From: Bacilli bacterium
GTDB taxonomy: Bacteria; Bacillota_I; Bacilli_A; RF39; UBA660
Assembly: GCA_017410525.1 (NCBI GenBank)
Contig: JAFQQQ010000002.1
Span: 205,591 to 269,590, forward strand
Direction of reading: 5' to 3'
DNA: 64,000 bases
The notes under the pieces: model-generated
Seen by the model: the letters and a program-made list of their open reading frames with translations, nothing else
What the model was told of the DNA's origin: nothing
The model's database searches: none
Part shown: positions 6,508 through 42,717 of the stretch, piece by piece
Layout of the letters: each line of letters starts with the position of its first letter
Numbering within the stretch: position 1 is the stretch's first letter
Translations under genes and position numbers: made by a program

Positions 6508-7488
6508 ATGTCATTCATCGAGGTTAAACATATAAATAAATCATTTAAGGTACCTATAAAGTCTAATGGAAGATTTGGCGCTTTAAAAACTTTCTTTAGT
6601 AGAAAATATAATTATATTAAAGCTATTAATGATATTTCGTTTTCTATTAAGAAAGGAGAAATAGTTGGTTACATTGGTCCAAATGGGGCAGGTAAGTCTA
6701 CAACAATAAAAATGTTATCTGGAATACTTGTGCCTGATAGTGGTAGTATTGTAATTGACAAAATGACACCTTGGAAGGATAGAAGAAAATATGTATCTAA
6801 AATAGGTGTTGTATTTGGCCAAAGAAGTCAATTATGGTGGGATATACCAGCTATTGATTCATTTAATTTGCTTAAAGATATTTATAAATTAGATGATAGG
6901 GAATATAAAAAAACATTAAATGAATTAATAGAGTTATTAAACTTAAAAGATATAATAAATATACCAGTAAGAAATTTAAGTTTAGGTAATAGAATGAAAT
7001 GCGAAATAGCGGCATCACTCATTCATAAGCCTAAAATACTATTTTTAGATGAACCTACTATAGGGTTAGATGCAATATCTAAAAAAACAGTTAGAGAATT
7101 TATAAAAAAGATAAATAGACAAAATAAAGTTACAGTAATATTAACGACTCATGATATGGCAGATATAGAAGCTCTAGCTAAAAGAATTATTTTAATTGGT
7201 AAAGGTAAATTATTATATGATGGATCACTTTCTAAATTAAAAAGAAAATATGATTATTTAAGAAAAATAACGGTAATAACTAAAGATAAAATAAAAATAG
7301 AAGAAGATTATATAATAGAAGAAAAAAATATTGACGGTGGAATTGAATTTATAATAGACATAAGAAAAATTGAAATAAATGATTTTATAAAACTAGTATC
7401 ATCTAAAATATCTATAAGTGATATTGATATAGATAGTGGTAATATTGATGAATTAATTGTTAAATTATATGAGGATTTTAAAATATGA
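6508..7488 (+). CDS. ABC transporter ATP-binding protein (ABC-2 type exporter ATPase)
   Basis: Walker A GPNGAGKST, signature LSLGNRMK and Walker B LFLDEPT. RBS AGGAAGGAG. Confidence 0.85.
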   Translation: MSFIEVKHINKSFKVPIKSNGRFGALKTFFSRKYNYIKAINDISFSIKKGEIVGYIGPNGAGKSTTIKMLSGILVPDSGSIVIDKMTPWKDRRKYVSKIGVVFGQRSQLWWDIPAIDSFNLLKDIYKLDDREYKKTLNELIELLNLKDIINIPVRNLSLGNRMKCEIAASLIHKPKILFLDEPTIGLDAISKKTVREFIKKINRQNKVTVILTTHDMADIEALAKRIILIGKGKLLYDGSLSKLKRKYDYLRKITVITKDKIKIEEDYIIEEKNIDGGIEFIIDIRKIEINDFIKLVSSKISISDIDIDSGNIDELIVKLYEDFKI

Positions 7489-8288
7489 AGTCTTATATAA
7501 CATATTTTAAATTAAAGTTTAAAACAGGACTTCAATATAGAGCTGCTGCTTTAGCAGGTATGGCTACTCAAGTATTCTTTGGATTTGTATATGTTTCAAT
7601 ATATATAGCATTCTATGAATCTGGTAGTGGTAATTTACCTATGGAATTAAATGAACTTGTAAGTTATGTTTGGATTAGCCAAAGTTTGTTAGCCCTTGTT
7701 TATATGTGGTATAAAGATAAAGAAATATTAAATATGATTAAGTCAGGTAACATTGCTTATGAATTATGTAGACCTCAAGATTTATATTTTATGTGGGCAA
7801 GTAAAATACTTGGAGAAAGACTTTCCAGTTGTGCTTTAAGATTTTTACCAGTAATTCTATTTGCTTTATTACTTCCAAGTCCATATAATTTAGATTTAAG
7901 TATTACATTACCTAGATTATTGTTATTTATGGTTGTAATGATATTATCAATTATACTTATGACAGTGCTTGTACTTTTATATCATGTAATTTGTTTAATT
8001 ACTTTAGATGACAAAGGTATAGTAAATATATTCATGGTGTTATCAGATATATTATCAGGCATGGCAATACCAATACCTTTCTTTCCAAGTTATCTTAAAA
8101 ACATATCTAATATATTACCATTTAGATATATAACTGATTTTCCATTTAGATTATATGTAGGAAATATTAGTATCAATGAAGGATTGTTTGGATTAGTAAT
8201 ACAAATCATATGGATAATAATACTTGTTATAATTGGTAGATTTATAACAAAAAAATCACTAAAGAAAGCAGTTATACAAGGTGGTTAA
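7485..8288 (+). CDS. ABC-2 family transporter permease
   Basis: Six predicted TM helices and translational coupling (ATGA overlap) with the ATPase. Confidence 0.65.
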   Translation: MKSYITYFKLKFKTGLQYRAAALAGMATQVFFGFVYVSIYIAFYESGSGNLPMELNELVSYVWISQSLLALVYMWYKDKEILNMIKSGNIAYELCRPQDLYFMWASKILGERLSSCALRFLPVILFALLLPSPYNLDLSITLPRLLLFMVVMILSIILMTVLVLLYHVICLITLDDKGIVNIFMVLSDILSGMAIPIPFFPSYLKNISNILPFRYITDFPFRLYVGNISINEGLFGLVIQIIWIIILVIIGRFITKKSLKKAVIQGG

Positions 8289-9066
8289 TATGGGATTATA
8301 TTTTAAATACTTTAAAATTCATTTTAAAAGTGAATTGCAATATAAACTATCTTTCATAATGTCATTTATAGCGCAATTCTTCGTATTCTTTGGTTATTAT
8401 TTTACAATTATTTGTTTATTTGATAAGTTCTCAAATATAAAAGGATTTACTCTCTATGAAGTGTTATTAACTTTTGGGATAATACAATTTGGATTTTCAT
8501 TTTGTGAGACATTTTTTAGAGGCATTGATCAATTTGATTATTTAATATTAAAAGGAAATTTTGATAGATTACTTTTAAGGCCTATAAATATTTTATTACA
8601 AGTGTTTTGTGAAGAAGTGAGTTTTATAAAATTATCTAGATTATTACAGTCTATTATAGTACTTATAATCGCAATAATAAAAATTGATGTAGTGTGGAAT
8701 ATAGAAAATATCATAACTTTAATATTTATGTTAATTAGTTCTATATTTATATTCCTAAGTATACTGATAATTACTGCTGCTTATTGCTTTTATACAGTAA
8801 AAGGCTTAGAAGTTAGAAATGTATTAACTTATGGATGTAGAGAGATGGCACAATATCCAATAGGTATATTTAGAAAAGGGTTTGTTATATTCTTTACTTG
8901 CATTGTACCTTTTGGATTTATAAATTATTATTCGCTTATGTTTATATTAGGTGATGTAACAAATAAATTATTAATAATTTCTCCTTTAATAACTCTTGTT
9001 TATTTAATACCAAGTGTTATAATATTTTATAAGGGTATGAAAAGATATTCTAGTGTAGGGAGTTGA
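8281..9066 (+). CDS. ABC-2 family transporter permease (second subunit)
   Basis: Polytopic membrane protein overlapping the previous gene, homologous in architecture to the 7485 permease. Confidence 0.65.
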   Translation: MVNMGLYFKYFKIHFKSELQYKLSFIMSFIAQFFVFFGYYFTIICLFDKFSNIKGFTLYEVLLTFGIIQFGFSFCETFFRGIDQFDYLILKGNFDRLLLRPINILLQVFCEEVSFIKLSRLLQSIIVLIIAIIKIDVVWNIENIITLIFMLISSIFIFLSILIITAAYCFYTVKGLEVRNVLTYGCREMAQYPIGIFRKGFVIFFTCIVPFGFINYYSLMFILGDVTNKLLIISPLITLVYLIPSVIIFYKGMKRYSSVGS

Positions 9067-9070
9067 TAAA

Positions 9071-9568
9071 ATGGAATATTTAGATTTATATGATGAAAAA
9101 GGAAATTTAATTGGTGAAAAAATACTAAGAACTAAAGGTATGAAACCACAAGATGATAAATATATAAAAATAGTTCTAGTATTTATAAAAAATGATGAAA
9201 ATAAATTTTTAATGCAAAAAACATCAAAGGAAAAAGGTAGTGTTTGGGCAACTACTGGTGGACTTGTTTCGTCTGGATATACTCCAGATGAAACAGTCGT
9301 AAAAGAAATAGAGGAAGAATTAGGTTTAGTAATAGAATTTAAAGAGTTAAAACACATAGAAACAATAAAAAGAAAACATGTTTTTCAAGATACTTACTAT
9401 TTAGAAAAAAATATAAATATTGAAGATTTAAAAATTCAAGAAGAAGAAGTAGAATTCGTTAAATGGTTAAGTGTCGGTGAAATAAATGAATTAATAAAAA
9501 ATGGTGAATTTAGAGAGGGTAATATTCTTGCTTTCAATAATTTATTAGAAAAAGAAAAATTAATATAA
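9071..9568 (+). CDS. NUDIX hydrolase
   Basis: Nudix box GGLVSSGYTPDETVVKEIEEELGL (Gx5Ex7REUxEExGU). Confidence 0.75.
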   Translation: MEYLDLYDEKGNLIGEKILRTKGMKPQDDKYIKIVLVFIKNDENKFLMQKTSKEKGSVWATTGGLVSSGYTPDETVVKEIEEELGLVIEFKELKHIETIKRKHVFQDTYYLEKNINIEDLKIQEEEVEFVKWLSVGEINELIKNGEFREGNILAFNNLLEKEKLI

Positions 9569-9630
9569 AAAATTTTTCTTTTTTTATAGAAAATAGTATG
9601 CATTTATGATATAGTTTAAGTGGTGGTACT

Positions 9631-10149
9631 ATGTATATTATTTCTGATGATATAAAACTTTCAGTATTAGAAGATAAGGAAGAAAATTATAAGTTATTAG
9701 AAAAATGGTGTAATAGAGAAGAAATATATAAACATTTCGAGCAAAGAATTTTAAAATATGATGAAATAGTTAATAAATATAAACCAAGGTGTAATATAAA
9801 TGCAGAAGTTCCTGTTTATATGATATATTATAAAAATAAAAAGATAGGGATTATTCAATATAAAAATATAAAGTCCAATACTTATGAATTTGATATTTTT
9901 ATTGGTGAAGTCAATCTGCACAGTAAAGGTTTGGGAGAAAAAGTAATAAAACTTATAACTAATTATTTGATTGATAATAAAGGCGCCGAAACATTCTTGC
10001 TTTGTCCGTTAAAAGAAAACGAGAAGGCTATAAAATGTTATAAAAAATGTGGATATAAAATAGTGAAAGAATATAAAGATTTTAATACGATTGGTGAAGA
10101 GAAAGAATATGTTATGATGGAGTATAATTATGAAAACAATTCTTTATAA
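9631..10149 (+). CDS. GNAT family N-acetyltransferase
   Basis: About 170 aa with GNAT-like motif-A region (..SKGLGEKVIKLITNYL..); recognised from memory of the AAC(6')/GNAT pattern. Confidence 0.55.
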   Translation: MYIISDDIKLSVLEDKEENYKLLEKWCNREEIYKHFEQRILKYDEIVNKYKPRCNINAEVPVYMIYYKNKKIGIIQYKNIKSNTYEFDIFIGEVNLHSKGLGEKVIKLITNYLIDNKGAETFLLCPLKENEKAIKCYKKCGYKIVKEYKDFNTIGEEKEYVMMEYNYENNSL

Positions 10150-14147: not shown

Positions 14148-14324
14148 ATGATATATATAGTAAGACATGGACAGACGGATTATAATGTAGAAGGTAGATA
14201 TGGTGGTAGGATAGGTGTAGAATTAAATATTAAAGGAATTGGGCAATCACATATCATTCATAATGAATTAAAGAATATAAAGTTTGATAATGAAAAACTA
14301 AAAGAATTACAAAAATATATATAA
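14148..14324 (+). pseudogene. Histidine phosphatase (phosphoglycerate mutase family) N-terminal remnant
   Basis: Encodes MIYIVRHGQTDYNVEGRYGG (RHG catalytic motif) but stops after about 59 aa. Further short unframed fragments follow to about 14470. Confidence 0.4.
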
Positions 14325-14522
14325 TAGTTCATGACAATATTGATTTTGACTCTTATTTTTCAAGTTATATATTATCTAAAATACTTCAAAGTTTAAACAC
14401 AAATGCTATTTTTACTATTTTTGATGATTATAATATTGGTGATGATGATAGAAAAATAATAGATGGTTATAAAAAAGAAAAAAATAGAATTAAACAAAAA
14501 TAGAAAAAAATGTAAAAAGGTG

Positions 14523-14557
14523 TTGACAAACAAAAAAAATTAGAGTATTATTTAATG
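14523..14557 (+). promoter_or_regulatory. Sigma-A-type promoter: TTGACA-17 nt-TATTAT
   Basis: Exact -35 hexamer TTGACA at 14523-14528, a 17-nt spacer and TATTAT -10, situated about 40 nt upstream of the RBS of the small Cys-rich ORF. Confidence 0.5.
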
Positions 14558-14593
14558 TAATATTTTTATCTTTTTAGACAAAGGAGGAATATT

Positions 14594-14740
14594 ATGGTTA
14601 ATTGCTTTAACATAGAAAGATCAGTGATAAAATCAAAATCTAATGTTATTTGCAACAGCTTCTGCTGCAATACTTTAGTATGCTTTTCAATTCTTTCTTG
14701 TCTAAATGAAAAGATGAAAAGCGATATAGCAAAGTCTTAA
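14594..14740 (+). CDS. Cys-rich 48-aa small ORF (MVNCFNIERSVIKSKSNVICNSFCCNTLVCFSILSCLNEKMKSDIAKS): candidate RiPP precursor or regulatory leader peptide
   Basis: Strong RBS AAAGGAGG 7 nt upstream of the ATG. Six Cys in 48 residues. The stop codon lies in the loop of the downstream terminator hairpin. Not in the supplied ORF track because it is under 60 aa. Confidence 0.45.
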   Translation: MVNCFNIERSVIKSKSNVICNSFCCNTLVCFSILSCLNEKMKSDIAKS

Positions 14741-14771
14741 TGACTTTTCTTGTCGCCTTTCATCTTTTTTC
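14708..14771 (+). terminator. Intrinsic terminator / attenuator hairpin overlapping the 3' end of the small ORF
   Basis: GAAAAGATGAAAAGCGA (14708-14724) pairs with TCGCCTTTCATCTTTTTTC (14753-71), followed by a T-run. The left arm encodes the last codons of the small ORF. Confidence 0.55.
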
Positions 14772-14803
14772 TTATAAAAATATAAAAGGAAAAGGAGGGA
14801 TTT

Positions 14804-16237
14804 ATGATAACTATTGAAAAATTATTAAATCATGTAAATACTTATAATCCTGGAGAAGAAGAAATTATAAGAAAAGCTTATGAGTATGCTGATTATTTAC
14901 ATGGAAATCAAATTAGACAAAGTGGAGAACCATATATTACACATCCTTTGAATGTTGCTTATATTTTATCTGAAATGCATGCAGATAGAGATACAATATG
15001 TGCTGCACTCTTACACGATACTCTAGAAGATACAAATACAACTAAAGAAGAAATAGCTGATTTATTTAATAAAGAAATAGCTAACTTAGTAGACGGAGTA
15101 ACAAAGATAAGTAAAATGAATTTTTCTAGTAAAGCAGAACAAAATTTAGCAAACACAAGAAAAATCATAACAGGGCTTACAGAAGATGTAAGAATAATAA
15201 TAATAAAATTAGCCGATAGACTTCATAACATGAGAACTTTAGAATTTAAATCTGAATTTAAGCAAAAAGAAAATTCTTTAGAAACAATGGAAATATTTGT
15301 ACCGCTTGCTTATTATATAGGTGCTTATAGAATAAAAAGTGAGCTAGAAGATATATCTTTTAAATATTTAAAACCAGATAAATATAAAGAAATAGAACAT
15401 AGAATAAATAACTCTAGTATTGAAAATAATAATTGCTTAAATGAAATGTTATTGAATATAGAAGAAATATTAAATAATGAGTCAATACCACATGAAATAA
15501 AAGTTAGAACAAAAAATATATATGGAATATATAAAAGAATAGATAATGGAGAAAACAAAATAAGTGATATACACGATTTATTATCTTTAAAAATAATGGT
15601 AGATGATATAAAAAATTGTTATATAACACTAGGTCTTATACATGATAAATATCATCCAATAAATGGAAGATTTAAAGATTATATTTGTAATCCTAAAACA
15701 AATCTATATAAATCTTTACATTCTACAGTATTTGGGCCTAATGAAAAATTAGTACAAACACAAATAAGAACATTTGATATGGATAAAATAGCATCCTTTG
15801 GTTTAACAGCATATTGGGATATAAATAAAGGTGATGCAAGATATACTATGCAACAAGATTTAAGAGATAATTTTCAATTTTTTAAATCATTATCAGATAT
15901 AAATGTTATGTTTAAGGATAATCAAGATTTTGTATCTCAAATAAAGAATGAATTATTCGCAAATAAAATTTATGTGTATACTACTAACGGTAAAATAATA
16001 GAATTACCTAAAGGATCAAATATTATTGATTTAGCTTGTTATATGGACATAGAAAATGTATTAATAGGAGCTAAAGTAAATGATGAAATAGTTCCTATTG
16101 ATTATATTTTAAAAAATAAAGATAGGGTAATACCACTTATAGATGAATTATCTTATGGATATAGAGAAAGTTGGATAGAAAAAGCGAATACAGTTTATGC
16201 TAAAAAGAAAATAAAGGGGTTAATAGAGAGTAGGTAA
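14804..16237 (+). CDS. RelA/SpoT homologue paralog (HD hydrolase + synthetase-like + TGS), truncated after TGS (477 aa)
   Basis: HD motif LLHDTLEDT, synthetase-domain block GRFKDYICNPKTNLYKSLHSTV..QIRTFDM and a TGS-like domain (IYVYTTNGKIIELPKGSNIIDLA). It lacks the C-terminal helical/ZFD/ACT domains of long RSHs. RBS AAAGGAGGGA. Confidence 0.75.
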   Translation: MITIEKLLNHVNTYNPGEEEIIRKAYEYADYLHGNQIRQSGEPYITHPLNVAYILSEMHADRDTICAALLHDTLEDTNTTKEEIADLFNKEIANLVDGVTKISKMNFSSKAEQNLANTRKIITGLTEDVRIIIIKLADRLHNMRTLEFKSEFKQKENSLETMEIFVPLAYYIGAYRIKSELEDISFKYLKPDKYKEIEHRINNSSIENNNCLNEMLLNIEEILNNESIPHEIKVRTKNIYGIYKRIDNGENKISDIHDLLSLKIMVDDIKNCYITLGLIHDKYHPINGRFKDYICNPKTNLYKSLHSTVFGPNEKLVQTQIRTFDMDKIASFGLTAYWDINKGDARYTMQQDLRDNFQFFKSLSDINVMFKDNQDFVSQIKNELFANKIYVYTTNGKIIELPKGSNIIDLACYMDIENVLIGAKVNDEIVPIDYILKNKDRVIPLIDELSYGYRESWIEKANTVYAKKKIKGLIESR

Positions 16238-16240
16238 AAA

Positions 16241-17401
16241 ATGTTATTTAGATTAGTTGCAATTCGTTGTCATAAAAATATAATTTTCTGTGACAGTTTT
16301 AATGAAAACTTTGAAAAAATACAATTAGCAATTCCATCAGAACTTTTCAACTCATTAGGACTTAAAGTAGGTAGTGTAATTTCTACAAATTATCAAATTA
16401 CTAAAAATAAATATGGAAATGATTTGTATTTCATAAATGATGTACAAAATGTATCAAATCATAATAAAAATATATCTTTTAAATCTATAAATACAAAATT
16501 ATCATCCATGAATCAATCTAGTTTTATTAGTGCATTAAATGGTGGAGTTAATTTAAAATATTGGGAAATGAAACAAAAACTTTTAGAAGAAATTAGAAAA
16601 TTTTTAGTAAATAGAAGTTACATAGAAGTAAATACTTCATTGTTAATGGATAATAGAGGTACTAGTACTGTTAACCCTATGCAAGTAAATGGTAAATACT
16701 GTGGTAATAAATATTTAAAAATAACTCATGAATTAGAATTAAAAAAAATTTGTTATCTTACTTTAAAATCATTATTTGAGATAGGATATGTAACAAGAGA
16801 TGTATATTCTACTAGTAAATCTGCTAATCAATATTTAACATTTGAATTAGTTGCACCTATAGAAGATACATTAACAGCAGAAGAATTATATATTTATGTT
16901 TATGAGATTGCAATTAAGTTGGCTGAATCATATGGTATTTCTTATAATGAGATATTTAATAAAATAGAAACAGTGGATGTTTTAAAATTATATTTATCAA
17001 ATCATAAAAAGATTGATAAGAAAGAATTCCTTGAGTTTTATAAAAAACTATTAGAATTAGAAAAAAATATAATATATGTAAATGCGCCTACCAATACTCC
17101 TTTAGCGAAAGAATCAGAATACGGAATACCTTTAGAAACAAAATGGGCTATAGGAAATAGGGGTATAGGTCATGGATATTATGATCAAAATCAGTTATCG
17201 GTTATAGAAAATTTATTTGAATTACAAAAAGATGCACTAAAAGAAAAAGGGATAGATTCCAGTGTTGATAAAGAATACTTAATGACTTTAATGTATGCAG
17301 GTATAGATACAAAAAGTTTAAATATAGGGATTGATAGATTTATGTATAAATTTTTAGGTTTAGATCACGAAGAGAAAGCAATAAAAATATTAGGATTATA
17401 G
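16241..17401 (+). CDS. Class II aminoacyl-tRNA-synthetase-like protein (LysRS-II/EpmA(PoxA)-like core with N-terminal OB-like region; degenerate motifs)
   Basis: Motif-1-like EIRKFLVNRSYIEVNTSLL, motif-2 region YLKITHELELKK..FEIGYVTRDV..ANQYLTFEL (FRNE/HNPEFT positions substituted) and motif-3-like IGIDRFMYKFLGL. Compared from memory with EpmA/LysRS. Confidence 0.55.
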   Translation: MLFRLVAIRCHKNIIFCDSFNENFEKIQLAIPSELFNSLGLKVGSVISTNYQITKNKYGNDLYFINDVQNVSNHNKNISFKSINTKLSSMNQSSFISALNGGVNLKYWEMKQKLLEEIRKFLVNRSYIEVNTSLLMDNRGTSTVNPMQVNGKYCGNKYLKITHELELKKICYLTLKSLFEIGYVTRDVYSTSKSANQYLTFELVAPIEDTLTAEELYIYVYEIAIKLAESYGISYNEIFNKIETVDVLKLYLSNHKKIDKKEFLEFYKKLLELEKNIIYVNAPTNTPLAKESEYGIPLETKWAIGNRGIGHGYYDQNQLSVIENLFELQKDALKEKGIDSSVDKEYLMTLMYAGIDTKSLNIGIDRFMYKFLGLDHEEKAIKILGL

Positions 17402-17411
17402 AGGTGAACAA

Positions 17412-18671
17412 ATGAAAGAAGATAAAATATTATTTTTGTATCCGCCGACAGTTTATGCTAACCATAGTATGTTTAAGCATTTTACTTATTTTGGCGAAAC
17501 GATAGATGTTATAAGTAGATATTATAAAAATATAAAAGTTTTAGACTGTGCAGTTGAACAAATAGAACAAAAGATAATATTTAATAATTTTAAAGATAGT
17601 AATTTATTAGTAATGGAAATAGAACCTTATAACATAGATGTTGCACTATCTTTAGGAAAATTATATAAATCATTCAACAGTAAAGGAAAAATTATAGTAT
17701 ATGGTACTGCAATTACAATAATGCCCAATTATTTTATGAAACAACATTTATTTGATTATATAATTAATGATGGTAATTTTGCTGTTGGTATATTGGGGGT
17801 AATGAATGAAATTTTAAATACAGAATATCCTTATGAAGTTAAGAGTAAATATTATGAATTAATAAATGGTGAGTATATAATGAAGGGTGATAATTTTCAA
17901 CTTCCAATAAAAGATTGGGGTGTTGGATATAATAAATTATTACCATTAGAAAAATATAAATTTTATAATAATGGTATGTTTGAATTAACTGTTCAAACCG
18001 GTTGCCCTTTTAATTGTTCTTTTTGTTCTGAAAAAATATTATTTGATAAGTATTGTGGAACAAAATATAGAGATGTTGAAGATATTATTAAAATAATGAA
18101 AAATATTAATGACGATTTTAATGAAATATATTTTTCTGCTACAACAATGACAGCAAATAGAAAATGGACTGAAAATTTATGTACTAGATTAATTGAAGAA
18201 GGTAATAAAATGCCTTGGAGAACAGTTACTAGAATTGATTGTGTTGATGAAGAATTGTTAAAATTAATGAAAAAATCAGGATTAAAGAAAATTTGTTTTG
18301 GTGTTGAAACGTTTGATGATAAATTATTAGAAGAGATAAATAAAAAACAAAATGCAAATAATGTAATTAATATATTAAAATTATGCAATAAATTAGGTAT
18401 TAAAGCCAAAGCTTTACTTATGTTGGGTATACCAGGACAAACAGCAAAAAATGTTTTTGATACAGTGAAAATATTAAAAGATTTAAATGTGGAATATAGA
18501 TTTAAAGAATATTCTCCTATTCGTGAAGCACATATATTAGATTCTAAAAATTCTGATATCTCTGATATGATTCCTATTTTTAGTAGATATGAATATAGAA
18601 CAAGTAGTATTCCTGGAATAACTAGTGAAGAATATATGGAATTACTTTTTCCTACAGAATATGTGAGGTAG
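17412..18671 (+). CDS. Radical SAM enzyme, probably class B (N-terminal B12-binding-like domain)
   Basis: CxxxCxxC motif TGCPFNCSFCSE in the middle of the protein, preceded by an about 190-aa Rossmann-like N-domain. Confidence 0.65.
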   Translation: MKEDKILFLYPPTVYANHSMFKHFTYFGETIDVISRYYKNIKVLDCAVEQIEQKIIFNNFKDSNLLVMEIEPYNIDVALSLGKLYKSFNSKGKIIVYGTAITIMPNYFMKQHLFDYIINDGNFAVGILGVMNEILNTEYPYEVKSKYYELINGEYIMKGDNFQLPIKDWGVGYNKLLPLEKYKFYNNGMFELTVQTGCPFNCSFCSEKILFDKYCGTKYRDVEDIIKIMKNINDDFNEIYFSATTMTANRKWTENLCTRLIEEGNKMPWRTVTRIDCVDEELLKLMKKSGLKKICFGVETFDDKLLEEINKKQNANNVINILKLCNKLGIKAKALLMLGIPGQTAKNVFDTVKILKDLNVEYRFKEYSPIREAHILDSKNSDISDMIPIFSRYEYRTSSIPGITSEEYMELLFPTEYVR

Positions 18672-18678
18672 ATTAGCA

Positions 18679-19707
18679 ATGATTGAACATTTAAAAAGTG
18701 GTTTGTCAATATCGACACATTTAGGTTGTGGATTAAAGTGCTCGTATTGTATTTTGTCAACCATGGACGGTTTTAATGAGGGCCCGGTATTACAAATTAA
18801 ACCCAAGGATTTAATATTTAAATTATTTAATGAATATGAATTTTATTGCAAAAATAAAACACCTTTAATGTTAAATAATAGAACAGATCCATTTTTACCA
18901 ACTGTAACACCGTATACTTTAGAAATTTTAGATTTATTAATTGAAAAGCAAGTCGAGTCTCCAATTATAATAATTTCAAAGTTTGCGCCGCCTACAGTTT
19001 TAAAAAAATATTTTTCTTTATTAAATATTTGTTACTTTTATTCTTATTCTGGTATAGATACTGATTTTAACTATAATAAACTTAAAAGTGATTTACAACT
19101 AATAAAAAATGTTGTTCCTAGGTCTTCTAGATTTCATTATTTTAGACCGATAATACCAGGAGTGAACGATGATTTTGAATTTATGAAAAAAATATTAAAT
19201 ATATTTAGTGAAAATGAATTTGATGCCACTGTAATTGCTGGATTTAGGGTAACTAATCTAAATAAACATTTAATAAAAAAGGAAACGATAGATGTTGAAA
19301 AAATTGATTATAATCATAAATTAGTAGATAGTAGTATATATGAAATAAATAAAATATTTAATGCCGAAAATTATCGTATATTTAGACATACTAGTTGTGC
19401 TATAGCAAACCATTTTAATTCTTTTAACAAATTAAATTATTTTTCAAAATGTGGTCATTGCTTTGAATCATGTCCTAACTATGACAACTGTTTAAATAAA
19501 AGAATAAATATTAAAGATATTTTAAAAGAACTTAAAGAAAAATTTGGTAATGAATATAATTTTAAAATTAAAGATAACAAAATTGAAATATTGTCTTTAT
19601 GTACTCAAGAATTAGTTGCTTATATAAAAAATGCTTATGGGTGTGAGATTATTGCAACCAATGTTAAATTATCAAAATCTGAAGAGGTGATTTTAGGTGA
19701 AAAATAA
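18679..19707 (+). CDS. Radical SAM enzyme with C-terminal Cys-rich (SPASM/twitch-like?) region
   Basis: N-terminal GCGLKCSYC (CxxxCxxC). The C-terminal cluster is CAIANH..CGHCFESCPNYDNC. Confidence 0.55.
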   Translation: MIEHLKSGLSISTHLGCGLKCSYCILSTMDGFNEGPVLQIKPKDLIFKLFNEYEFYCKNKTPLMLNNRTDPFLPTVTPYTLEILDLLIEKQVESPIIIISKFAPPTVLKKYFSLLNICYFYSYSGIDTDFNYNKLKSDLQLIKNVVPRSSRFHYFRPIIPGVNDDFEFMKKILNIFSENEFDATVIAGFRVTNLNKHLIKKETIDVEKIDYNHKLVDSSIYEINKIFNAENYRIFRHTSCAIANHFNSFNKLNYFSKCGHCFESCPNYDNCLNKRINIKDILKELKEKFGNEYNFKIKDNKIEILSLCTQELVAYIKNAYGCEIIATNVKLSKSEEVILGEK

Positions 19708-20248
19708 TATTATAGTGGGATGCGATTTACATAATACTTTGTTATTAAGCAATGAAGCTTGGATAAAAGCATTTATAAGTCTTAATTCTAAATTGGATAT
19801 AAATGAAATTTCTAATTTTATATATAGTAAAAAATCAAGAAAAGAAATGGCTAGATTATATAATATTGATTATAATGTATTATTAAATACTTATCATAAA
19901 AATTGTATTCCTAATATAAAATTATTAAATTTTATTAAAGAACTTAAAGTTAAAGGGTTTCCTATTGTTTTAATTTCTTCATCAAGCGAAGAAAAAGTAA
20001 AAAAAGATTTAGAGAAACTAAAAGAATATATTTCTTTTGATAAAATTTATACAAAAGAAACATTTTCTAAAAGTGTTTCTAAAGATTGGGATATGGTTAT
20101 AAAAGAATATAGAGCAAAATTTATGGTATATATAGGAAATGACTATGATGAAGATATAATACATAATGATAAAGTAATATCTATTCTTTCAGGACATTTT
20201 TTTACAGAATTGAAAAAAAACGGTTTTTTAGAAGAAAGAGGTAAATAA
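19697..20248 (+). CDS. HAD-like hydrolase (atypical motif I)
   Basis: N-terminal VGCDLHNTLL (DxHxT in place of DxDxT), Rossmann-like remainder. Overlaps the previous gene by 11 nt. Confidence 0.4.
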   Translation: MKNNIIVGCDLHNTLLLSNEAWIKAFISLNSKLDINEISNFIYSKKSRKEMARLYNIDYNVLLNTYHKNCIPNIKLLNFIKELKVKGFPIVLISSSSEEKVKKDLEKLKEYISFDKIYTKETFSKSVSKDWDMVIKEYRAKFMVYIGNDYDEDIIHNDKVISILSGHFFTELKKNGFLEERGK

Positions 20249-20250
20249 AA

Positions 20251-21168
20251 ATGGAAATATATTTAAAAAAAGAAGATATAGAAAGTTATCTAATAAATCA
20301 GGAAGAAAATATAAAAAACATGATTGATAATTTAGATTCAAGTTGGCCACATTATAATGCAGTGAAAAAATTATTAGAAGAGACTATGTTAGAAATAAAA
20401 AGAAAAGATATACATTGTAATGCTGTTTTATCTTCTACTAAGCATGAACGAAAAATAGAAAAATATGTAAATTGGGTTGAGGTTTATAGACTAGCAAATT
20501 ATCATTTTTCAAAATATACTAGTAGTAATACTTCTTATAGTGAAGGATTGTTTTCAACATTACTTGCGTTAAATAGTATGTATATACATAATAAAAAAAT
20601 TAAGGATATTGGAATAATTGGTTGTGGTCCAGGAAGAAGCGTTTTAGATTTTTCTTTAGCTTATCCAGATGCCACTATTTATGGTTTAGATTATTCCTTA
20701 GTTTCCTTAGTTTTAGCAAGAAATATTGTTAGTACAAATAATAAAAATATTGAGATTATAAGAAGAGATGATGAAGTAGTATTAGATAAAGTTGAAAGCT
20801 TTAATAGGACAAATTGTAAATGGGGAATGTTTGATTTAACTAAATCTAATTTAAATGAAAAATTTGATATCGTAGTATGTTCAAATGTAATAAATTTAAT
20901 GCCTAATCATAAAGATGCTATAAATAAAATTTATGATATGATAAAACCTAATGGATATTTAATATATGCTGATTTAACTGGTTGGAGATTAGATAGAAAG
21001 AAAGAACAACAATTACTTTCTGATAAAAAAGCTATAAAAAATAGTTTTGAAAACGTAGGCTTTGAAACTATAGAATGTTTTGATGGTGGACCATATATAG
21101 AAAAAGAAAATAAAGATAATTTCACGTTTTATAAACAAACTTATTATATAGGAAGGAAGGTAAAATGA
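20251..21168 (+). CDS. Class I SAM-dependent methyltransferase
   Basis: Motif I IGIIGCGPGRSVLDF, motif post-I DYS, 305 aa. Confidence 0.65.
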   Translation: MEIYLKKEDIESYLINQEENIKNMIDNLDSSWPHYNAVKKLLEETMLEIKRKDIHCNAVLSSTKHERKIEKYVNWVEVYRLANYHFSKYTSSNTSYSEGLFSTLLALNSMYIHNKKIKDIGIIGCGPGRSVLDFSLAYPDATIYGLDYSLVSLVLARNIVSTNNKNIEIIRRDDEVVLDKVESFNRTNCKWGMFDLTKSNLNEKFDIVVCSNVINLMPNHKDAINKIYDMIKPNGYLIYADLTGWRLDRKKEQQLLSDKKAIKNSFENVGFETIECFDGGPYIEKENKDNFTFYKQTYYIGRKVK

Positions 21169-21824
21169 AAAATATAATATTATTAAGTGGACCTGATAAA
21201 ACAAAATATTTTGCTAAGGAAATATCAAAAGAAATAAAAAATAACGTTACGCATCCAACAAATATGGTTGTAATACCGGCTGATCCAAATAATTATGAAA
21301 AAAATGATAAACAATTTAAAGGGAATGAAAGTGTAGTTGGAGTATTTAAAACATTTAAAAAAATATTTCCAGATATAAATATTGTTTTGTTAGATAATAG
21401 AGTAGATTCTACAAGTGGATTAAACAAGTTGAAGAAAGCAGATATTATTTATCTACTTGGTGGAAATCCTTTTATTCAATTAGAATACTTGCAAAAAAAT
21501 AATTATAGTGATACAATATGCAGCACAAATGCATTGGTTATGGGAGTTAGTGCTGGATCAATGAATTTAGCTGTTGATTCTTATTATTCTAAAGATGAGG
21601 ATTATCCAGAAAGTGTAATTTATAAAGGATTAGGAATTGTTGACATGACTATAGATCCACATTTTGATATTAACAATGAAGAACAGGTTAAAGAAATAAA
21701 AGTTAATTCAAAAGATAGAAAAATTATTGGTTTACCAAATGATTCAGCAATAATTGTTTCAAATAATAATATAAAATATATTGGTGATATTTATTTATTT
21801 GAAAATGGTGAATTAACTAATTAA
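21165..21824 (+). CDS. Peptidase S51 (dipeptidase E / cyanophycinase-like) family protein
   Basis: GGNPF..., the nucleophile elbow GVSAGS and a downstream His region. Overlaps the previous gene by 4 nt. Confidence 0.55.
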   Translation: MKNIILLSGPDKTKYFAKEISKEIKNNVTHPTNMVVIPADPNNYEKNDKQFKGNESVVGVFKTFKKIFPDINIVLLDNRVDSTSGLNKLKKADIIYLLGGNPFIQLEYLQKNNYSDTICSTNALVMGVSAGSMNLAVDSYYSKDEDYPESVIYKGLGIVDMTIDPHFDINNEEQVKEIKVNSKDRKIIGLPNDSAIIVSNNNIKYIGDIYLFENGELTN

Positions 21825-21855
21825 TTAGTTAGTTTACAAGATAGGGGGAATTGGA

Positions 21856-23433
21856 ATGAATTGGGCATTAGAAGAAGCAAAAAAATTAGTTGAAAAGCAT
21901 CCTGAAAAGGAAGAATTTGTAATCGCATCGGGGGTTAGTCCATCTGGATTTATACACATAGGAAATTTTAGAGAAATCGTTACTACATTTTTTGTAGGTA
22001 AAGAATTAGAAAATTTAGGGAAAAAAGTTAGATTTATATTATCGTTTGATGATTTTGATAGATTTAGAAAAGTTCCTAAAGGAATGCCGGAAAGTTATAG
22101 TAAGTATATAGGAATGCCTTATACTAGTATACCTAGTCCATTTAGTGAAAATAAAACTTATGCTAAAGAAATGGAAGATATATTTGTAAGTGAATTAAAT
22201 AGACTAGGAATTAATCCTGAAACCATATCTCAAACAGAACAATATAAAAGTGGAAGATATGATGATAAAATTAAATTAGCTATGGAACAAAGAAAAAAAA
22301 TATTTGATATAATGGCTAATTATAAAACTCAAGAATTTACAGAAGAAGATAGAAATAATTATTATCCTATAAGTTTATATTGTGAAGAATGTGGTAAAGA
22401 TTCAACAACTATATTAAATTATAATGATGTAACAGGTGATGTAGAATATAAATGTACTTGTGGGCATCATCATATTCAAAATATAAATAAATGTGGTAAT
22501 ATAAAGTTACAATGGAAAATTGATTGGCCAATGAGATGGCAAAAAGAAGGGGTAATTTTTGAACCAGGTGGTAGAGATCATTCTGCAGAAAATGGAAGTT
22601 ATGCTGTATCAAAAGAAATATCTAAACGAATTTTTGAATATGAAGCACCATCCTATGTAGCCTATGATTTTATTGGTATTAAAGGCGCTAATGGTAAAAT
22701 GGCTTCATCAACAGGAAATGTTTTAACATTAACTGATTTATTAAGTGTTTATGATAAAAATATAATATTATGGTTTTATGCCAAAAATAGACCTAATCAT
22801 CAATTTAATATAGCGCTTGATGAAGATGTATTAAGATTCTATACAGAATATGATAGGATGGTAAAAGCATATTTTGAAGGTAAATTAGATGATAAAAATT
22901 CTAGTATTATATCATTAACAGGAGTAACTAGTGGGTATGTTAATAATCCTAATTTTGGATATATAGCAAACTTTTTACCGATGGTAAGTTATAAAGAAGA
23001 AGCACTTGCAAAATTATTAAGTAAAGAAAATATTGATTGTTCTACATTATATTTTAAAAATAGATTACTAAGAGCAACCAATTGGTTAGAAAAATATAAT
23101 AATAGTAAAATAAAAGTGTTAGATGAATTTAATCAAGAATATTATGAAACATTAAGTGATGAAGAAAAAGAATGGTTAGAAAAAACTTTAGTTGTTTTAC
23201 AAAATGAATATGAAACTACTCAGGATTTACAAACAGATTTATATGCTATTGTAAAAAATGGTATAGAAGATTCTAAAGAATTAAAAAATAAACAAAGAAG
23301 ATATTTTCAGATAATTTATAATTTAATTATAGGAAAAGATAATGGACCAAAAATGGGATTATTGCTATCTGCAATGGATTATGAAGTTGTAAAATCTAAA
23401 TTGCAAAAATCAAAAGAAAAAAAATTAAGATAA
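21856..23433 (+). CDS. lysK: Class I lysyl-tRNA synthetase (LysK-type)
   Basis: ASGVSPSGFIHIGNFREIVT (HIGH-equivalent of class-I LysRS) and KMASSTGN (KMSKS). 525 aa. Only 32 nt after the previous gene, so no T-box leader is possible. Confidence 0.8.
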   Translation: MNWALEEAKKLVEKHPEKEEFVIASGVSPSGFIHIGNFREIVTTFFVGKELENLGKKVRFILSFDDFDRFRKVPKGMPESYSKYIGMPYTSIPSPFSENKTYAKEMEDIFVSELNRLGINPETISQTEQYKSGRYDDKIKLAMEQRKKIFDIMANYKTQEFTEEDRNNYYPISLYCEECGKDSTTILNYNDVTGDVEYKCTCGHHHIQNINKCGNIKLQWKIDWPMRWQKEGVIFEPGGRDHSAENGSYAVSKEISKRIFEYEAPSYVAYDFIGIKGANGKMASSTGNVLTLTDLLSVYDKNIILWFYAKNRPNHQFNIALDEDVLRFYTEYDRMVKAYFEGKLDDKNSSIISLTGVTSGYVNNPNFGYIANFLPMVSYKEEALAKLLSKENIDCSTLYFKNRLLRATNWLEKYNNSKIKVLDEFNQEYYETLSDEEKEWLEKTLVVLQNEYETTQDLQTDLYAIVKNGIEDSKELKNKQRRYFQIIYNLIIGKDNGPKMGLLLSAMDYEVVKSKLQKSKEKKLR

Positions 23434-39912: not shown

Positions 39913-39989
<77 letters not shown>

Positions 39990-40003
39990 TCTTATTAAAA
40001 TAT

Positions 40004-40080
40004 GGCCGGTTGGTGAAGCGGCTTAACACACATGCCTTTCACGCATGCATTCACGGGTCCGAATCCCGTACCGGTCACCA
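40004..40080 (+). tRNA. tRNA-Glu (anticodon UUC)
   Basis: Acceptor GGCCGGT/ACCGGTC, anticodon stem CATGC/GCATG with loop CTTTCAC, T arm ACGGG-TCCGAAT-CCCGT, CCA encoded. Resembles the Bacillus tRNA-Glu sequence, judged from memory. Confidence 0.8.
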
Positions 40081-40091
40081 TATGTTAATTA

Positions 40092-40118
40092 ACCCTTGAT
40101 TTTCAAGGGTTTTTATTT
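40092..40118 (+). terminator. Terminator hairpin AACCCTTGA..TCAAGGGTT + T-run after the tRNA pair
   Basis: Perfect 9-bp stem, 4-nt loop, TTTTTATTTT. Confidence 0.6.
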
Positions 40119-40128
40119 TGTCGTTTGA

Positions 40129-40153
40129 GTTTTGGTCTTGTTTTTGGTCTTGT
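40129..40153 (+). repeat. Tandem direct repeat TTTTGGTCTTGT x2
   Basis: GTTTTGGTCTTGTTTTTGGTCTTGTAA. Related copies recur at 41365-41401. Confidence 0.6.
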
Positions 40154-40253
40154 AACTCGTTTTTTTTTTGAACTTTTTTATTTCCTTTTGTCAATATAAA
40201 ATAAAAAACGAAAAAAACATTGAAAAAAAGATCAAAAATATAGAAGTTTTTAA

Positions 40254-40320
40254 ATGGTGACCGGTAAGAAACCCGGACCCACTTATAGCTATAGTGAATA
40301 CCTGCGTGAGTGTGTGTTAA
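40254..40320 (-). pseudogene. Degenerate inverted copy of tRNA-Glu (3' half), pseudo-tRNA fragment
   Basis: TGGTGACCGGTA...GTGAATACCTGCGTGAGTGTGTGTTAAG matches the reverse complement of the tRNA-Glu 3' end and anticodon-arm region with an about 13-nt insertion. The T-arm cannot fold. Confidence 0.45.
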
Positions 40321-40418
40321 GATTTGATAAAATAAATTGACCTCTCGCTTATTTAAAAAAAGTTGATATTTTTTTCTTTTGTGATATAATATAAGAAATT
40401 TTTGTAGGGGGATAATTT

Positions 40419-40700
40419 ATGAAAGAAATCACGTTTTATAGAACATATAGTTATGGTGGTATGGAAGGTAGAAACAAAGAAGTGAGAAATTTTGAAACAG
40501 TAGAGTTAGCTGTTCAAGATGCTCTTAAAGATACTTGGAATGACCAATTTAAATTATATAAAGTAAAAATGATATTTGATGGAAAAATAACAGAAGAAGA
40601 AAAGTACATAGAACCTTTAGTGTGTGGTAGAGATTTAATTTCTGATAATCCATTGAATAAATTAAATTTAGAATCTTTAACTAAACCAAAAAGAAAATAG
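40419..40700 (+). CDS. Hypothetical 93-aa protein
   Basis: ORF with RBS GGGGGATAA and an upstream extended -10 (TGATATAAT). No recognisable domain. Confidence 0.4.
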   Translation: MKEITFYRTYSYGGMEGRNKEVRNFETVELAVQDALKDTWNDQFKLYKVKMIFDGKITEEEKYIEPLVCGRDLISDNPLNKLNLESLTKPKRK

Positions 40701-40784
40701 TGTTGTATCTTGATTTTTAGATTTTATTTAGTAGTTAACGTTTGTCAAAAAATTTTTAAAAAAACATAAAAAGGAGTTTCTGTA

Positions 40785-41345
40785 ATGAAAGAAAAATTAT
40801 TTAATACAAGTGATGGTATAAAATATAAATTCTCAAGATTTTATATTATTAAAAATAATTATTTATTTAGTACTAGTAATGCTAATTTAGGTCATAATTT
40901 AAAAACTTGTTGTTGTATAAAAAAGTTAGGTTCAAATGTTCGTCCTAAAATTTATTTAGATATAAAAAAGGATAATAAGATAATCATGAAAAACAAACTT
41001 ATAGGTGATTACCAAGCATTAATGGATTTTATAGTGGAACACCAGAATGATTTTATATTTATAAAAGGTTTTAGTAGAGCTAGTATGGCTGAATTTATAG
41101 CAATGCTTAATATCAAAAAGCAGATGAATATTAAACCTGTAAAATTTAAAAATAAAATATTAGAGGCACAATACGAAAGACATTTACTAACAAAAGAACA
41201 ACGCATTGAAGAATTAAATAAAAAATTAGAAAATGGCGCAGAAGTTGATAGTGCTGAGCAATATATGAAAATTACCAATTCAGTATTTGGTATAAATAGA
41301 TATAAGTCTAGACAAAAAATTATACAATTAAGAAAAAATAGTTAG
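40785..41345 (+). CDS. Hypothetical 186-aa protein (basic, coiled-coil C-terminus)
   Basis: RBS AAAGGAG. No recognisable catalytic motif. It is the larger of the two ORFs of the islet. Confidence 0.4.
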   Translation: MKEKLFNTSDGIKYKFSRFYIIKNNYLFSTSNANLGHNLKTCCCIKKLGSNVRPKIYLDIKKDNKIIMKNKLIGDYQALMDFIVEHQNDFIFIKGFSRASMAEFIAMLNIKKQMNIKPVKFKNKILEAQYERHLLTKEQRIEELNKKLENGAEVDSAEQYMKITNSVFGINRYKSRQKIIQLRKNS

Positions 41346-41364
41346 GCTAAATAACTATTTTTTG

Positions 41365-41401
41365 TTTTAGTCTTATTTTGGTCTTGTGGTTTGGTCTTGT
41401 A
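41365..41401 (+). repeat. Tandem direct repeats TTTAGTCTTAT / TTTGGTCTTGT / TTTGGTCTTGT
   Basis: Same 11-mer family as at 40129-40153, in the same orientation, near the other end of the islet. Confidence 0.55.
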
Positions 41402-41541
41402 AATGGTTACTATTTGTTAAAATTATCAAAATAAACAGTAACAAAAAATGATAAAACAGTAACACGAAATCCCTTTGTTTTTAAGGCAATATGGCATTAG
41501 CCCTTTATTTTCAATAATTTTCTAAAAATAGAAGTTCACAT

Positions 41542-41558
41542 TCCCGTACCGGTCACCA
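41542..41558 (+). repeat. Direct repeat of tRNA-Glu 3' end (attR-like)
   Basis: A 17/17 identity to 40064-40080. Confidence 0.6.
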
Positions 41559-41606
41559 TTTATGAATTAGAAACCATTTTATATGGTTTTTTTCTTTATA
41601 TAATTG

Positions 41607-41640
41607 TGAACGCATTGCGTGGTGTGAGTGATTAAGCCTT
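41607..41640 (-). pseudogene. Second inverted tRNA-Glu-like fragment
   Basis: GTGAACGCATTGCGTGGTGTGAGTGATTAAGCC resembles the reverse complement of the tRNA-Glu anticodon/D-arm region (..GTGAATGCATGCGTG..GTGTGTTAAGCC). Confidence 0.35.
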
Positions 41641-41771
41641 ATATGGTTTTGAGTAAGTATTAATACTAAAATAACTGAATGGAATGAACCTGAATAGACC
41701 TCTCGCTTAAATTAATAATTTATGTTATAATTAAATTGTCATATAAATGATAAGTTGTAAGGAGGAAATAC

Positions 41772-42419
41772 ATGAATAATACTATAGTAACATATGAAAC
41801 ATTCCATGGAAGTGCGAAGAAGATAGCTAATATAATTTCTGATAAATTAAATTGCAAATGTATTAATATAGATACACCTTTTGAAGCTGAAGATTTAAAA
41901 GAAATAGATAATATAATATTAGTATTTAACTTTAGAGGGCCATATACTGCTCAATTAACTAAATTATATTTAAATAGAGTTAAAGAACAGTTAAAAAATA
42001 AAAATGTAATTTTAGTAGGTGAAGGATTATTTTCAGAAAAAGAATTCCCTGTAGTAGCAGATGAAATATACAAAAATAACCCATCAAAAACATTTAACAA
42101 ATTTTTTGTTAATGGACAATTAAGAATGGAAACATTATTTCCAGAAGAAAGAGCTCTACTTAAAAAGTTTAGTGAAATAACTGGTATGGAAATAAAAGAT
42201 ATGGGAGAACTTGATTTGAAGAAAGCAGAAGAAGTTGCTAATGAAATTGAAAGATTGATTGAAACGGATGAATTTAAGACTCCAATAGAAAATGAAACAA
42301 ATGAAAATCAAGGAACAAAGTGGGTTTGTCCAGTATGTGGGTATATCCACTATGGAGATAATCCACCAGAAAAATGTCCTTTGTGTGGAGTACCTAAAGA
42401 ACTTTTTAGAAAAGAATAA
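41772..42419 (+). CDS. Flavodoxin-like domain fused to C-terminal rubredoxin-like zinc/iron finger
   Basis: N-terminal flavodoxin-fold pattern (TYETFHGSAKKIA), C-terminal WVCPVCGY...CPLCG (rubredoxin CxxC...CxxC). RBS AAGGAGG. Confidence 0.65.
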   Translation: MNNTIVTYETFHGSAKKIANIISDKLNCKCINIDTPFEAEDLKEIDNIILVFNFRGPYTAQLTKLYLNRVKEQLKNKNVILVGEGLFSEKEFPVVADEIYKNNPSKTFNKFFVNGQLRMETLFPEERALLKKFSEITGMEIKDMGELDLKKAEEVANEIERLIETDEFKTPIENETNENQGTKWVCPVCGYIHYGDNPPEKCPLCGVPKELFRKE

Positions 42420-42471
42420 AAAAAGTTTGAATAATTAAAATATAAGTAGTATAATTTAATTATTCTTTTAT

Positions 42472-42546: not shown

Positions 42547-42549
42547 AGT

Positions 42550-42636: not shown

Positions 42637-42638
42637 AT

Positions 42639-42712: not shown

Positions 42713-42717
42713 CTTTT

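Follow-up and report, generated by a model that had tools for sequence, protein, structure and literature searches.

The DNA analyzed here, referred to as the window, is a 64,000-nucleotide stretch of contig JAFQQQ010000002.1 (assembly GCA_017410525.1, positions 205,591 to 269,590) from a Bacilli bacterium, and the element under study is a short open reading frame (sORF) with many cysteine codons that lies on the plus strand, directly 5' of a rel (RelA/SpoT) gene, and ends inside a hairpin resembling an intrinsic terminator. The sORF (14594-14740) begins with an ATG at 14594 and ends with a TAA at 14738-14740. Read directly, its 48 codons encode the peptide MVNCFNIERSVIKSKSNVICNSFCCNTLVCFSILSCLNEKMKSDIAKS, which contains six cysteines (C4, C20, C24, C25, C30 and C36, with codons at 14603, 14651, 14663, 14666, 14681 and 14699); the last five of these define a Cys-codon zone (14651-14701) located 57 to 7 nt before the terminator. 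The Shine-Dalgarno (SD) sequence of the sORF, AAAGGAGG, spans 14580-14587 and includes a GGAGG at 14583-14587. A promoter scan identified a promoter-like site, TTGACA-17-TATTAT, on the same strand at 14523-14551, which matches 11 of 12 consensus positions and is the only plausible promoter for both the sORF and rel. At the distal end of the sORF, RNAfold predicts a hairpin (14708-14769; GAAAAGATGAAAAGCGA ... TCGCCTTTCATCTTTTT) with an energy of -27.7 kcal/mol, the 3' side of which overlaps and runs into TTTTTTCTT. Together with its U-tract, this predicted terminator-like element extends from 14708 to 14773 and holds the last 11 codons of the sORF, with codons 39-44 making up the 5' arm of the hairpin and codons 45-48 and the stop lying in its loop. 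A consensus terminator scan of the window returned no match to the leader hairpin, because the loop exceeds the 8-nt limit of the scan, and RNAfold was therefore used instead.

The gene that follows, rel, has its own SD at 14794-14798 and a coding sequence at 14804-16237 on the plus strand. Its 477-aa product combines HD, synthetase and TGS domains according to Pfam, and it matches only positions 1-449 of the 687 positions of the NCBIfam model TIGR00691. On these domain matches, this short Rel lacks the C-terminal domains that serve ribosome-dependent control in long Rel/RelA proteins. The same short form, of about 471-477 aa and with the same HD, synthetase and TGS organization, is found throughout the lineage, in the window and in all the related loci described below (L001-L055). 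An earlier, sequence-only reading of this locus had described the sORF, its strong SD, the six cysteines in 48 codons and a stop codon inside a terminator-like hairpin, all of which are confirmed by the sequence and by RNAfold, although the spacer between SD and ATG, given as 7 nt, measures 6 nt. That reading had also named two radical S-adenosylmethionine (SAM) enzymes as the downstream partners of the sORF, which does not hold: the next gene is rel, and only one radical-SAM gene, a B12-binding one on the same strand at 17412-18671 (419 aa), is confirmed by Pfam. The 342-aa product of 18679-19707, also on the same strand, carries a CxxxCxxC motif but has no Pfam match.

In order to determine which parts of this arrangement are conserved, the Rel protein was scanned against one genome per species, yielding 55 loci that derive nearly all from metagenome-assembled genomes of uncultured gut Bacilli, with "Mycoplasma sp. 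CAG:472" and "Clostridium sp. CAG:451/609" among them. Their Rel proteins are 58% to 84% identical to that of the window, with a Neobacillus outlier at 40%. The only gene common to all 55 loci is rel, and the other genes of the window are essentially missing from them. The layout upstream of rel was counted over 53 rel loci, and 30 dereplicated leaders were used for the statistics on reading frame, Cys codons and pairing. The sORF-terminator layout precedes rel in about 41 of the 53 loci, 37 of which were identified by a strict automatic filter and the other four (L007, L028, L030 and L054) by an independent scan. The shared order comprises a near-consensus promoter, a short 5' untranslated region (UTR) of the AAATTATTTG type, an SD with its ATG, an sORF 20-48 codons long, a hairpin with a T-run, a gap of about 30 nt and the SD of rel. 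In most related loci a TTGACA-16/17-TAAAAT promoter stands at the corresponding position, 37 or more have an SD-like sequence (matching GGAGG in four or more of its five positions) and an ATG that are likewise equivalently placed, and in most a comparable hairpin with a T-run precedes rel according to RNAfold. The sORF is always co-oriented with rel, and the distance from the end of the terminator to the rel coding match is 18-69 nt, mostly 28-40 nt, with the SD of rel in between. Where the stop codon lies is tightly tied to the hairpin: in all 30 dereplicated leaders it sits between -9 and +36 nt relative to the hairpin's first base and 12-48 nt ahead of its last one.

The specificity of this association was apparent from a blind scan that covered both strands of about 560 kb and sought an SD followed by a 20-55 codon sORF with at least two Cys codons and a stop in or at a terminator. 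The scan returned 35 matches, 32 of which are rel leaders and one of which is a duplicated copy of the leader in L009. This second copy (L009:12578-12785) is a near-identical promoter, sORF and terminator 6.8 kb downstream of the first, and it precedes a methyltransferase remnant and a pepE-like gene instead of rel; a segmental duplication or a re-use of the regulatory module could account for it. Two contigs carry two short rel genes each (L024/L045 on CAKOXW010000001.1 and L040/L053 on CATYVZ010000006.1), and in both pairs each rel copy has its own, different Cys-codon leader. Several relatives have a plain promoter before rel and neither sORF nor terminator, namely L002 (5700-6000), L036, L041, L043 and L044. 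In L041, L043 and L044 the promoter stands directly before rel, so that the promoter found 5' of the sORF corresponds to the rel promoter elsewhere. The existence of leaderless relatives implies that the leader was lost, or never gained, in some lineages.

The reading frame of the sORF is maintained across the family, whereas its product is not. The 30 dereplicated leaders contain no stop in the sORF frame, versus 124 and 183 in the other two frames, and the insertions and deletions in the coding part of closely related pairs are multiples of three (9, 6, 6 and 9 nt). The three codon positions share the substitutions evenly (8/9/11 between the window and L001; 7/7/8 between L004 and L040), indicating that the peptide sequence is not under purifying selection. 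The encoded peptides range from 20 to 48 aa, show scant residue conservation outside the Cys zone and are mainly hydrophilic (rich in N, K and S), not transmembrane-like. Hence, translation appears to be selected while the product is not, which is the signature of a regulatory leader. The peptide of the window sORF matches no Pfam family and is absent from the public protein collection by exact-sequence look-up; of five leader peptides looked up in this way, two are present there, labeled as unnamed or hypothetical proteins.

These observations bear on two explanations in which the peptide itself would be the functional product. The sORF could be an independent gene for a small Cys-rich protein, such as a metal-binding protein, a membrane peptide or a type I toxin, with rel expressed by leaky read-through. 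Type I toxin mRNAs typically sequester their SD by 5'-3' pairing, a feature that the rel leaders share (see below), and a strong SD, a maintained frame, a terminator of its own and the prediction of some leader peptides as hypothetical proteins by gene callers would fit such a gene. We nevertheless consider this very unlikely, given the even substitutions, the wide length range, the poor residue conservation outside the Cys zone, the hydrophilic composition and the lack of a Pfam match; moreover, the 18-69 nt separating the terminator from the co-oriented rel match leave no room for a separate rel promoter. The sequence-only reading had instead proposed a sactipeptide- or ranthipeptide-type precursor, that is, a ribosomally synthesized and post-translationally modified peptide (RiPP), for the radical-SAM enzymes encoded downstream, the precursor-to-enzyme ratio being set by the hairpin. 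The peptide is indeed Cys-rich and the genes at 17412-18671 and 18679-19707 are on its strand, but they are separated from it by rel and a gene similar to lysyl-tRNA synthetase (LysRS). In addition, the sORF stays with rel in more than 50 related loci in which the radical-SAM genes of the window are missing nearby, the single exception being a 26%-identity match 3 kb away in L040, and the genes following rel in nine other loci are unrelated. The precursor explanation, which we regard as having next to no likelihood, was rejected, since the sORF travels with rel while its neighbors change and the peptide shows no purifying selection. Short Cys-codon ORFs, for which the sequence-only reading had suggested searching upstream of radical-SAM genes in related genomes, do recur there, but upstream of rel.

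The feature of the coding sequence that does recur is its cysteine content. Cysteine accounts for 7.3% of leader residues, versus 1.3% in the long ORFs of the window, a 5.6-fold enrichment. The excess is specific to the reading frame: over the whole sORF, TGY triplets occur 82 times in frame versus 19 and 47 times in the other frames, TGC triplets 43 times versus 3 and 13, and within the 45 nt before the terminator TGY occurs 57 times versus 11 and 22, in counts that do not represent independent events, since the leaders share ancestry. Codon choice is also distinctive, with TGC making up 52% of Cys codons in the leaders versus 15% genome-wide (162 TGT to 28 TGC). The Cys codons peak 25-42 nt before the first base of the terminator and, family-wide, constitute 13% of the codons within the 45 nt preceding it. 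At least one Cys codon is present between -54 and -12 in 27 of the 30 leaders and at least two in 16. Runs of the CC, CSC, CCC and CxC types are common and vary between lineages.

The same region of the sORF engages in a second conserved feature, a long-range helix, here termed P1, that closes the translation start site of the sORF. In almost every leader, minimum free energy (MFE) folds pair the SD and AUG of the sORF with its distal part, just before the terminator. In the window, the 5' strand of P1 (14573-14590, plus strand), which is the translation-initiation region of the sORF, pairs with a 3' strand at 14690-14706, the anti-SD/anti-initiation region ATTCTTTCTTGTCTAAA, which encodes ILSCLN. 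In all 30 leaders the segment that pairs best with the initiation region ends 0-17 nt short of the terminator. A widely conserved core, YTCATGC, is complementary to the start-codon region, and the CU-rich run following it is complementary to the SD. The significance of these pairings was evaluated by permutation tests comparing duplex energies for cognate and non-cognate combinations of segments from the 30 leaders. As expected for a positive control, the two arms of the terminator pair much better within than between leaders (-15.3 versus -5.4 kcal/mol, p<5e-5). The initiation region and the last 45 nt before the terminator do so as well (-15.2 versus -11.6 kcal/mol, p<5e-5), whereas the initiation region and the middle of the sORF do not (-7.3 versus -7.6 kcal/mol, p=0.80). 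P1 is also stronger than pairing with a shuffled anti-region (-15.5 versus -10.3 kcal/mol, p=2e-7), and within the same RNA the anti-region pairs better with the initiation region of the sORF than with that of rel (-15.5 versus -10.4 kcal/mol, Wilcoxon p=3e-5), which is the case in 25 of the 30 leaders. Compensatory changes from A-U to G-C in P1 are seen in two comparisons, that of L004 with L040 and that of the window with L001.

The overlap between Cys codons and anti-initiation sequence bears on a further explanation. The leader might be a general sensor of translation capacity, responding to free ribosomes or initiation factors, to how fast elongation proceeds or to antibiotics through a race between ribosome loading and P1 closure, with the Cys codons being largely a by-product of the anti-initiation sequence, or merely slow codons. 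The concealment of the SD and AUG of the sORF itself in nearly every leader, the complementarity of the conserved CAUGC core to the start-codon region and the leaders with one or no Cys codon in the zone are all consistent with such a sensor. It is harder to reconcile with the frame-specificity of TGY in the anti-region zone, with the lineage-to-lineage differences in the CC, CSC, CCC and CxC runs, and with the use of CAUG, as read from the sequences, although CAUA would pair better with the U preceding the AUG. We therefore rate it as rather improbable.

No further helix is shared by the family. Classical attenuation would call for an RNA antiterminator, either of the 2:3 type or formed by the initiation region and a terminator arm, and the cognate and non-cognate energies over the 30 leaders provide no evidence of a conserved one: cognate pairing is no better between the anti-region and the 5' arm of the terminator (-5.1 versus -5.4 kcal/mol, p=0.76), between the initiation region and the 5' arm (-4.9 versus -4.5 kcal/mol, p=0.09) or between the initiation region and the 3' arm (-7.0 versus -7.2 kcal/mol, p=0.74). 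The window does contain two modest alternative pairings with the 5' arm, one involving 14681-14697 (-12.8 kcal/mol) and one involving the 5' UTR (-10.1 kcal/mol), but neither is a feature of the family; the alternative antiterminator for which the sequence-only reading had suggested folding the leader is thus present as a candidate in the window and absent as a conserved element. Taken as models, the folds and energies support a family that conserves two helices, P1 and the terminator. A further explanation is an RNA-only element, such as a riboswitch or a leader bound by a protein or a tRNA, with the ORF being there only incidentally. The presence of conserved blocks of nucleotides (for example ATTATTTGYTCATGC) and the stability of the fold (z = -4.7 versus shuffles for the 251-nt window leader, and z = -2.3 without the terminator) agree with this possibility. 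Rfam searches, however, returned only sub-threshold microRNA and small nucleolar RNA noise for the window leader (E up to 10), nothing but tRNAs for the whole window and no matches for ten related loci, and RNAalifold showed no complex conserved junction. The SD and AUG, the open frame, the in-frame character of insertions and deletions and the stop position relative to the hairpin are moreover all conserved, and we hold an RNA-only element to be highly improbable.

On balance, we consider it somewhat probable that the leader attenuates rel in a ribosome-dependent manner, with the ribosome itself serving as the antiterminator and its delay at Cys codons allowing the terminator to form. Positions 14558-14803 would constitute the leader of the rel mRNA, transcribed from the promoter at 14523-14551. 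The nascent RNA would first expose the strong SD and the AUG of the sORF and, about 100 nt later, the pyrimidine-rich segment 14690-14706, which would pair with the SD/AUG region to form P1; the intrinsic terminator (14708-14773) would emerge immediately after the 3' strand of P1, followed by rel. A ribosome loading before P1 closes would trail RNA polymerase to the end of the sORF and, on reaching the stop codon inside the hairpin, would cover the 5' arm of the terminator, so that no hairpin would form and rel would be transcribed. With the ribosome absent or lagging, the hairpin would form and transcription would end before rel. A ribosome waiting for Cys-tRNA at the codons 25-42 nt upstream would leave the hairpin free, and a stall would thus mean less rel. 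Read-through would in this way follow the supply of charged tRNA-Cys, or the speed of translation generally. With P1 closing the start site some 100 nt after the site has emerged, translation of the sORF would be confined to ribosomes loaded co-transcriptionally, and terminated or untranslated leaders would be silent. In the absence of an RNA antiterminator, the ribosome would be the only cis-acting way past the terminator, and this role matches the one geometric constant of the family, an sORF that ends in or at the hairpin.

Experimental work on the E. coli tR2 terminator lends plausibility to the ribosome-as-antiterminator model. There, shifting the stop from 28 to 5 bp before the terminator reduced termination from about 90% to less than 10%, abolishing translation restored termination, and some 10-15 nt of RNA left free from the A site to the hairpin sufficed for folding (PMC4824070). 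The logic is in essence that of the sequence-only reading, in which a ribosome at the stop melts the terminator and a stall at Cys codons permits termination, and it fits the lack of a conserved RNA antiterminator. The suggestion in that reading of an attenuator sensing cysteine or Cys-tRNA thus broadly stands as far as the conserved anatomy of a putatively translated leader with its stop within the terminator and the in-frame enrichment of Cys codons are concerned, but the gene that would be controlled is rel, and neither a cysteine gene nor a radical-SAM operon.

The same attenuator might operate with the opposite sign, with stalling at Cys codons causing read-through and rel being induced when Cys-tRNA is scarce. 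One possible route is that the stalled ribosome keeps P1 open, so that queued ribosomes or an unrecognized alternative pairing block the terminator. Such an arrangement is physiologically attractive, as starvation would lead to more alarmone enzyme; known Cys leaders have been proposed or shown to induce on stalling (PMC8632094; 10.1101/834739), and the two window pairings with the 5' arm could serve as antiterminators. We consider it unlikely, in view of the family-wide energies, in which pairings with the terminator arms are no better for cognate than for non-cognate combinations, and of the location of most Cys codons, which at 25-42 nt from the hairpin lie beyond the 10-15 nt over which a ribosome would interfere with it (PMC4824070). 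The conserved placement of the stop in the hairpin would also go unexplained.

Several observations weigh against the ribosome-as-antiterminator model with termination on stalling. In B. subtilis, which also belongs to the Bacilli, transcription is reported to be "runaway" (PMC13323073), with polymerase outrunning the ribosome, so that the model would need a polymerase pause. NusG-type TTNTTT pause motifs do show 18 of their 29 occurrences at -42 to -19, but this T-rich zone coincides with the anti-SD strand, and its composition could account for the cluster. The Cys signal is not universal either: the critical zone is free of Cys codons in three of the 30 leaders and L033 lacks them throughout, the excess of Cys and TGC could in part be a by-product of the G+pyrimidine anti-initiation sequence (e.g. 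CAUGC opposite the start codon), and the shared ancestry of the leaders tempers the frame counts given above. The leader is entirely missing from L002, which, at 77% Rel identity, is the second-closest relative found. RNAalifold, run on a MAFFT alignment of the initiation-region and anti-region segments, yielded no consensus structure, as the register of the pairing changes from leader to leader, and P1 therefore rests on single-sequence folds and on cognate versus non-cognate energies instead of column-wise covariation. Lastly, the physiological sense of producing less rel when translation is slow is not obvious, although it would make sense under translational stress if the short Rel acts mainly as a (p)ppGpp hydrolase.

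Among known systems, the E. coli pyrBI attenuator offers the closest parallel. In pyrBI, the ribosome translating the leader peptide directly blocks the intrinsic terminator, and the signal is polymerase pausing that depends on uridine triphosphate. As in that attenuator (discussed in PMC5021804 and PMC4824070), the rel leader has an ORF that enters the terminator and no RNA antiterminator, and its read-through would be set by the closeness of the ribosome to the polymerase. It differs from pyrBI in its cluster of Cys codons just before the hairpin, in sequestering its own SD and AUG in P1 and in having rel instead of a pyrimidine gene as its target. By analogy, the rel leader would work most like the pyrBI attenuator, with regulatory codons of the amino-acid type found in trpL and hisL.

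Classical amino-acid attenuators rely on mutually exclusive hairpins (1:2, 2:3 and 3:4), place the stop codon upstream of the terminator and respond to stalling with read-through. The rel leader resembles trpL, hisL, pheL, thrL and leuL in combining a short ORF bearing regulatory codons with an intrinsic terminator upstream of the target gene. It departs from them in having no conserved 2:3 antiterminator, in the stop inside the terminator, in a proposed sign that is the opposite of theirs and in a target, rel, that is not a biosynthetic operon for the amino acid presumably sensed. Leader ORFs with Cys codons have been described in the uORFC-8-2 motif of Rhodobacterales cysS (PMC8632094), as polycysteine sORFs in mycobacteria (10.1101/834739) and in actinobacterial Cys leaders (PMC1262725). 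Those sORFs are likewise short and enriched in Cys, with UGC prominent, and have been proposed or shown to read Cys-tRNA by ribosome pausing; unlike them, associated as they are with cysS and cysteine metabolic loci, the leaders identified here precede rel in every locus. The mechanisms of those systems differ as well. The mycobacterial sORFs are, in addition, leaderless and act by uncovering the downstream gene's ribosome-binding site (10.1101/834739), and all of these systems belong to Alphaproteobacteria or Actinobacteria, whereas the present one comes from uncultured gut Bacilli and shows no sequence similarity to them. Within the Firmicutes, the B. subtilis leaders of bmrCD/bmrB (PMC4191407), vmlR (PMC9226507) and tlrB/yxjB (PMC6851288) similarly use an ORF to couple ribosome behavior to an intrinsic terminator. 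The bmrB, vmlR and tlrB leaders need polymerase pausing to synchronize ribosome and polymerase, and in them an antibiotic-induced stall promotes an RNA antiterminator, whereas in the rel leader none is conserved and the suspected signal is codon-specific.

The genomic surroundings of the leader vary. In the window, a co-oriented cluster extends 3' of rel from 16241 to 23433 and encodes, in order, a class II LysRS-like paralogue (386 aa), the B12-binding radical-SAM protein and the 342-aa CxxxCxxC protein; further members are a haloacid dehalogenase (HAD) hydrolase, a SAM methyltransferase, a PepE-like peptidase and a class I LysRS. The cluster may represent an aminoacyl or small-molecule modification pathway, and it is not kept beside rel in the related loci. 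The gene that follows rel, checked in nine loci, is variously CysD-like, a YcaO-nitroreductase fusion, a HAD hydrolase, a phosphatase, similar to an aminoacyl-tRNA synthetase, or another. The only cysteine-related one among them is in L003 (7440-8333), a sulfur-assimilation gene of the phosphoadenylylsulfate (PAPS)-reductase/CysD-like type directly after rel. In L006, the gene after rel (7448-9600) encodes a 708-aa YcaO-nitroreductase fusion, near which lies an sORF for a 37-aa Cys/Gly-rich peptide (MDKKVLNFKSVKYTKSNSLAACVTGGGGCACDDGTGE; 9621-9734); fusion and sORF look like a RiPP cluster of the thiazole/oxazole type, unrelated to the rel leader. Just upstream of the leader promoter of the window ends a histidine-phosphatase (His_Phos_1) gene (14148-14503) split over two frames, probably a frameshifted pseudogene or an assembly error. 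The window contains seven tRNA genes within 39913-50385, in two small arrays and an isolated gene (Ile, Glu; Gln, Leu, Thr, Val; Lys), and a tRNA-Cys gene is not found in its 64 kb.

Leader-peptide attenuation is textbook knowledge for amino-acid biosynthetic operons. Full-text literature searches turned up no leader peptide reported for rel, and what is new here is the target, rel, the lineage in which it occurs, and the combination of a self-sequestering start site with a stop inside the terminator and no antiterminator helix. A more specific proposal, which we put forward as doubtful, is that in these gut Bacilli with reduced genomes the "hungry-codon" sensing associated with the C-terminal domains lost from this Rel has moved to the rel leader, so that Cys-tRNA supply would feed into the stringent response through terminator occlusion. 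In this version, a pioneer ribosome translating the Cys-codon sORF would race the closure of the start-site helix and thereby set the level of the alarmone enzyme, and the leader might also link sulfur or redox status to the stringent response. The case also carries a caution, in that Cys-rich mini-ORFs near radical-SAM genes should not be taken for RiPP precursors without comparative support. If the ribosome-dependent reading is true, the rel leader would be a natural attenuator whose antiterminator is the ribosome and not an RNA helix, and its roughly 250 nt would offer a compact, testable model of how transcription and translation are coupled in Bacilli, a group in which such coupling is considered weak. 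For the lineage that carries it, which is uncultured and abundant in the human and animal gut, it would represent a new input to alarmone metabolism, in which tRNA-Cys charging or translation capacity is read via rel transcription.

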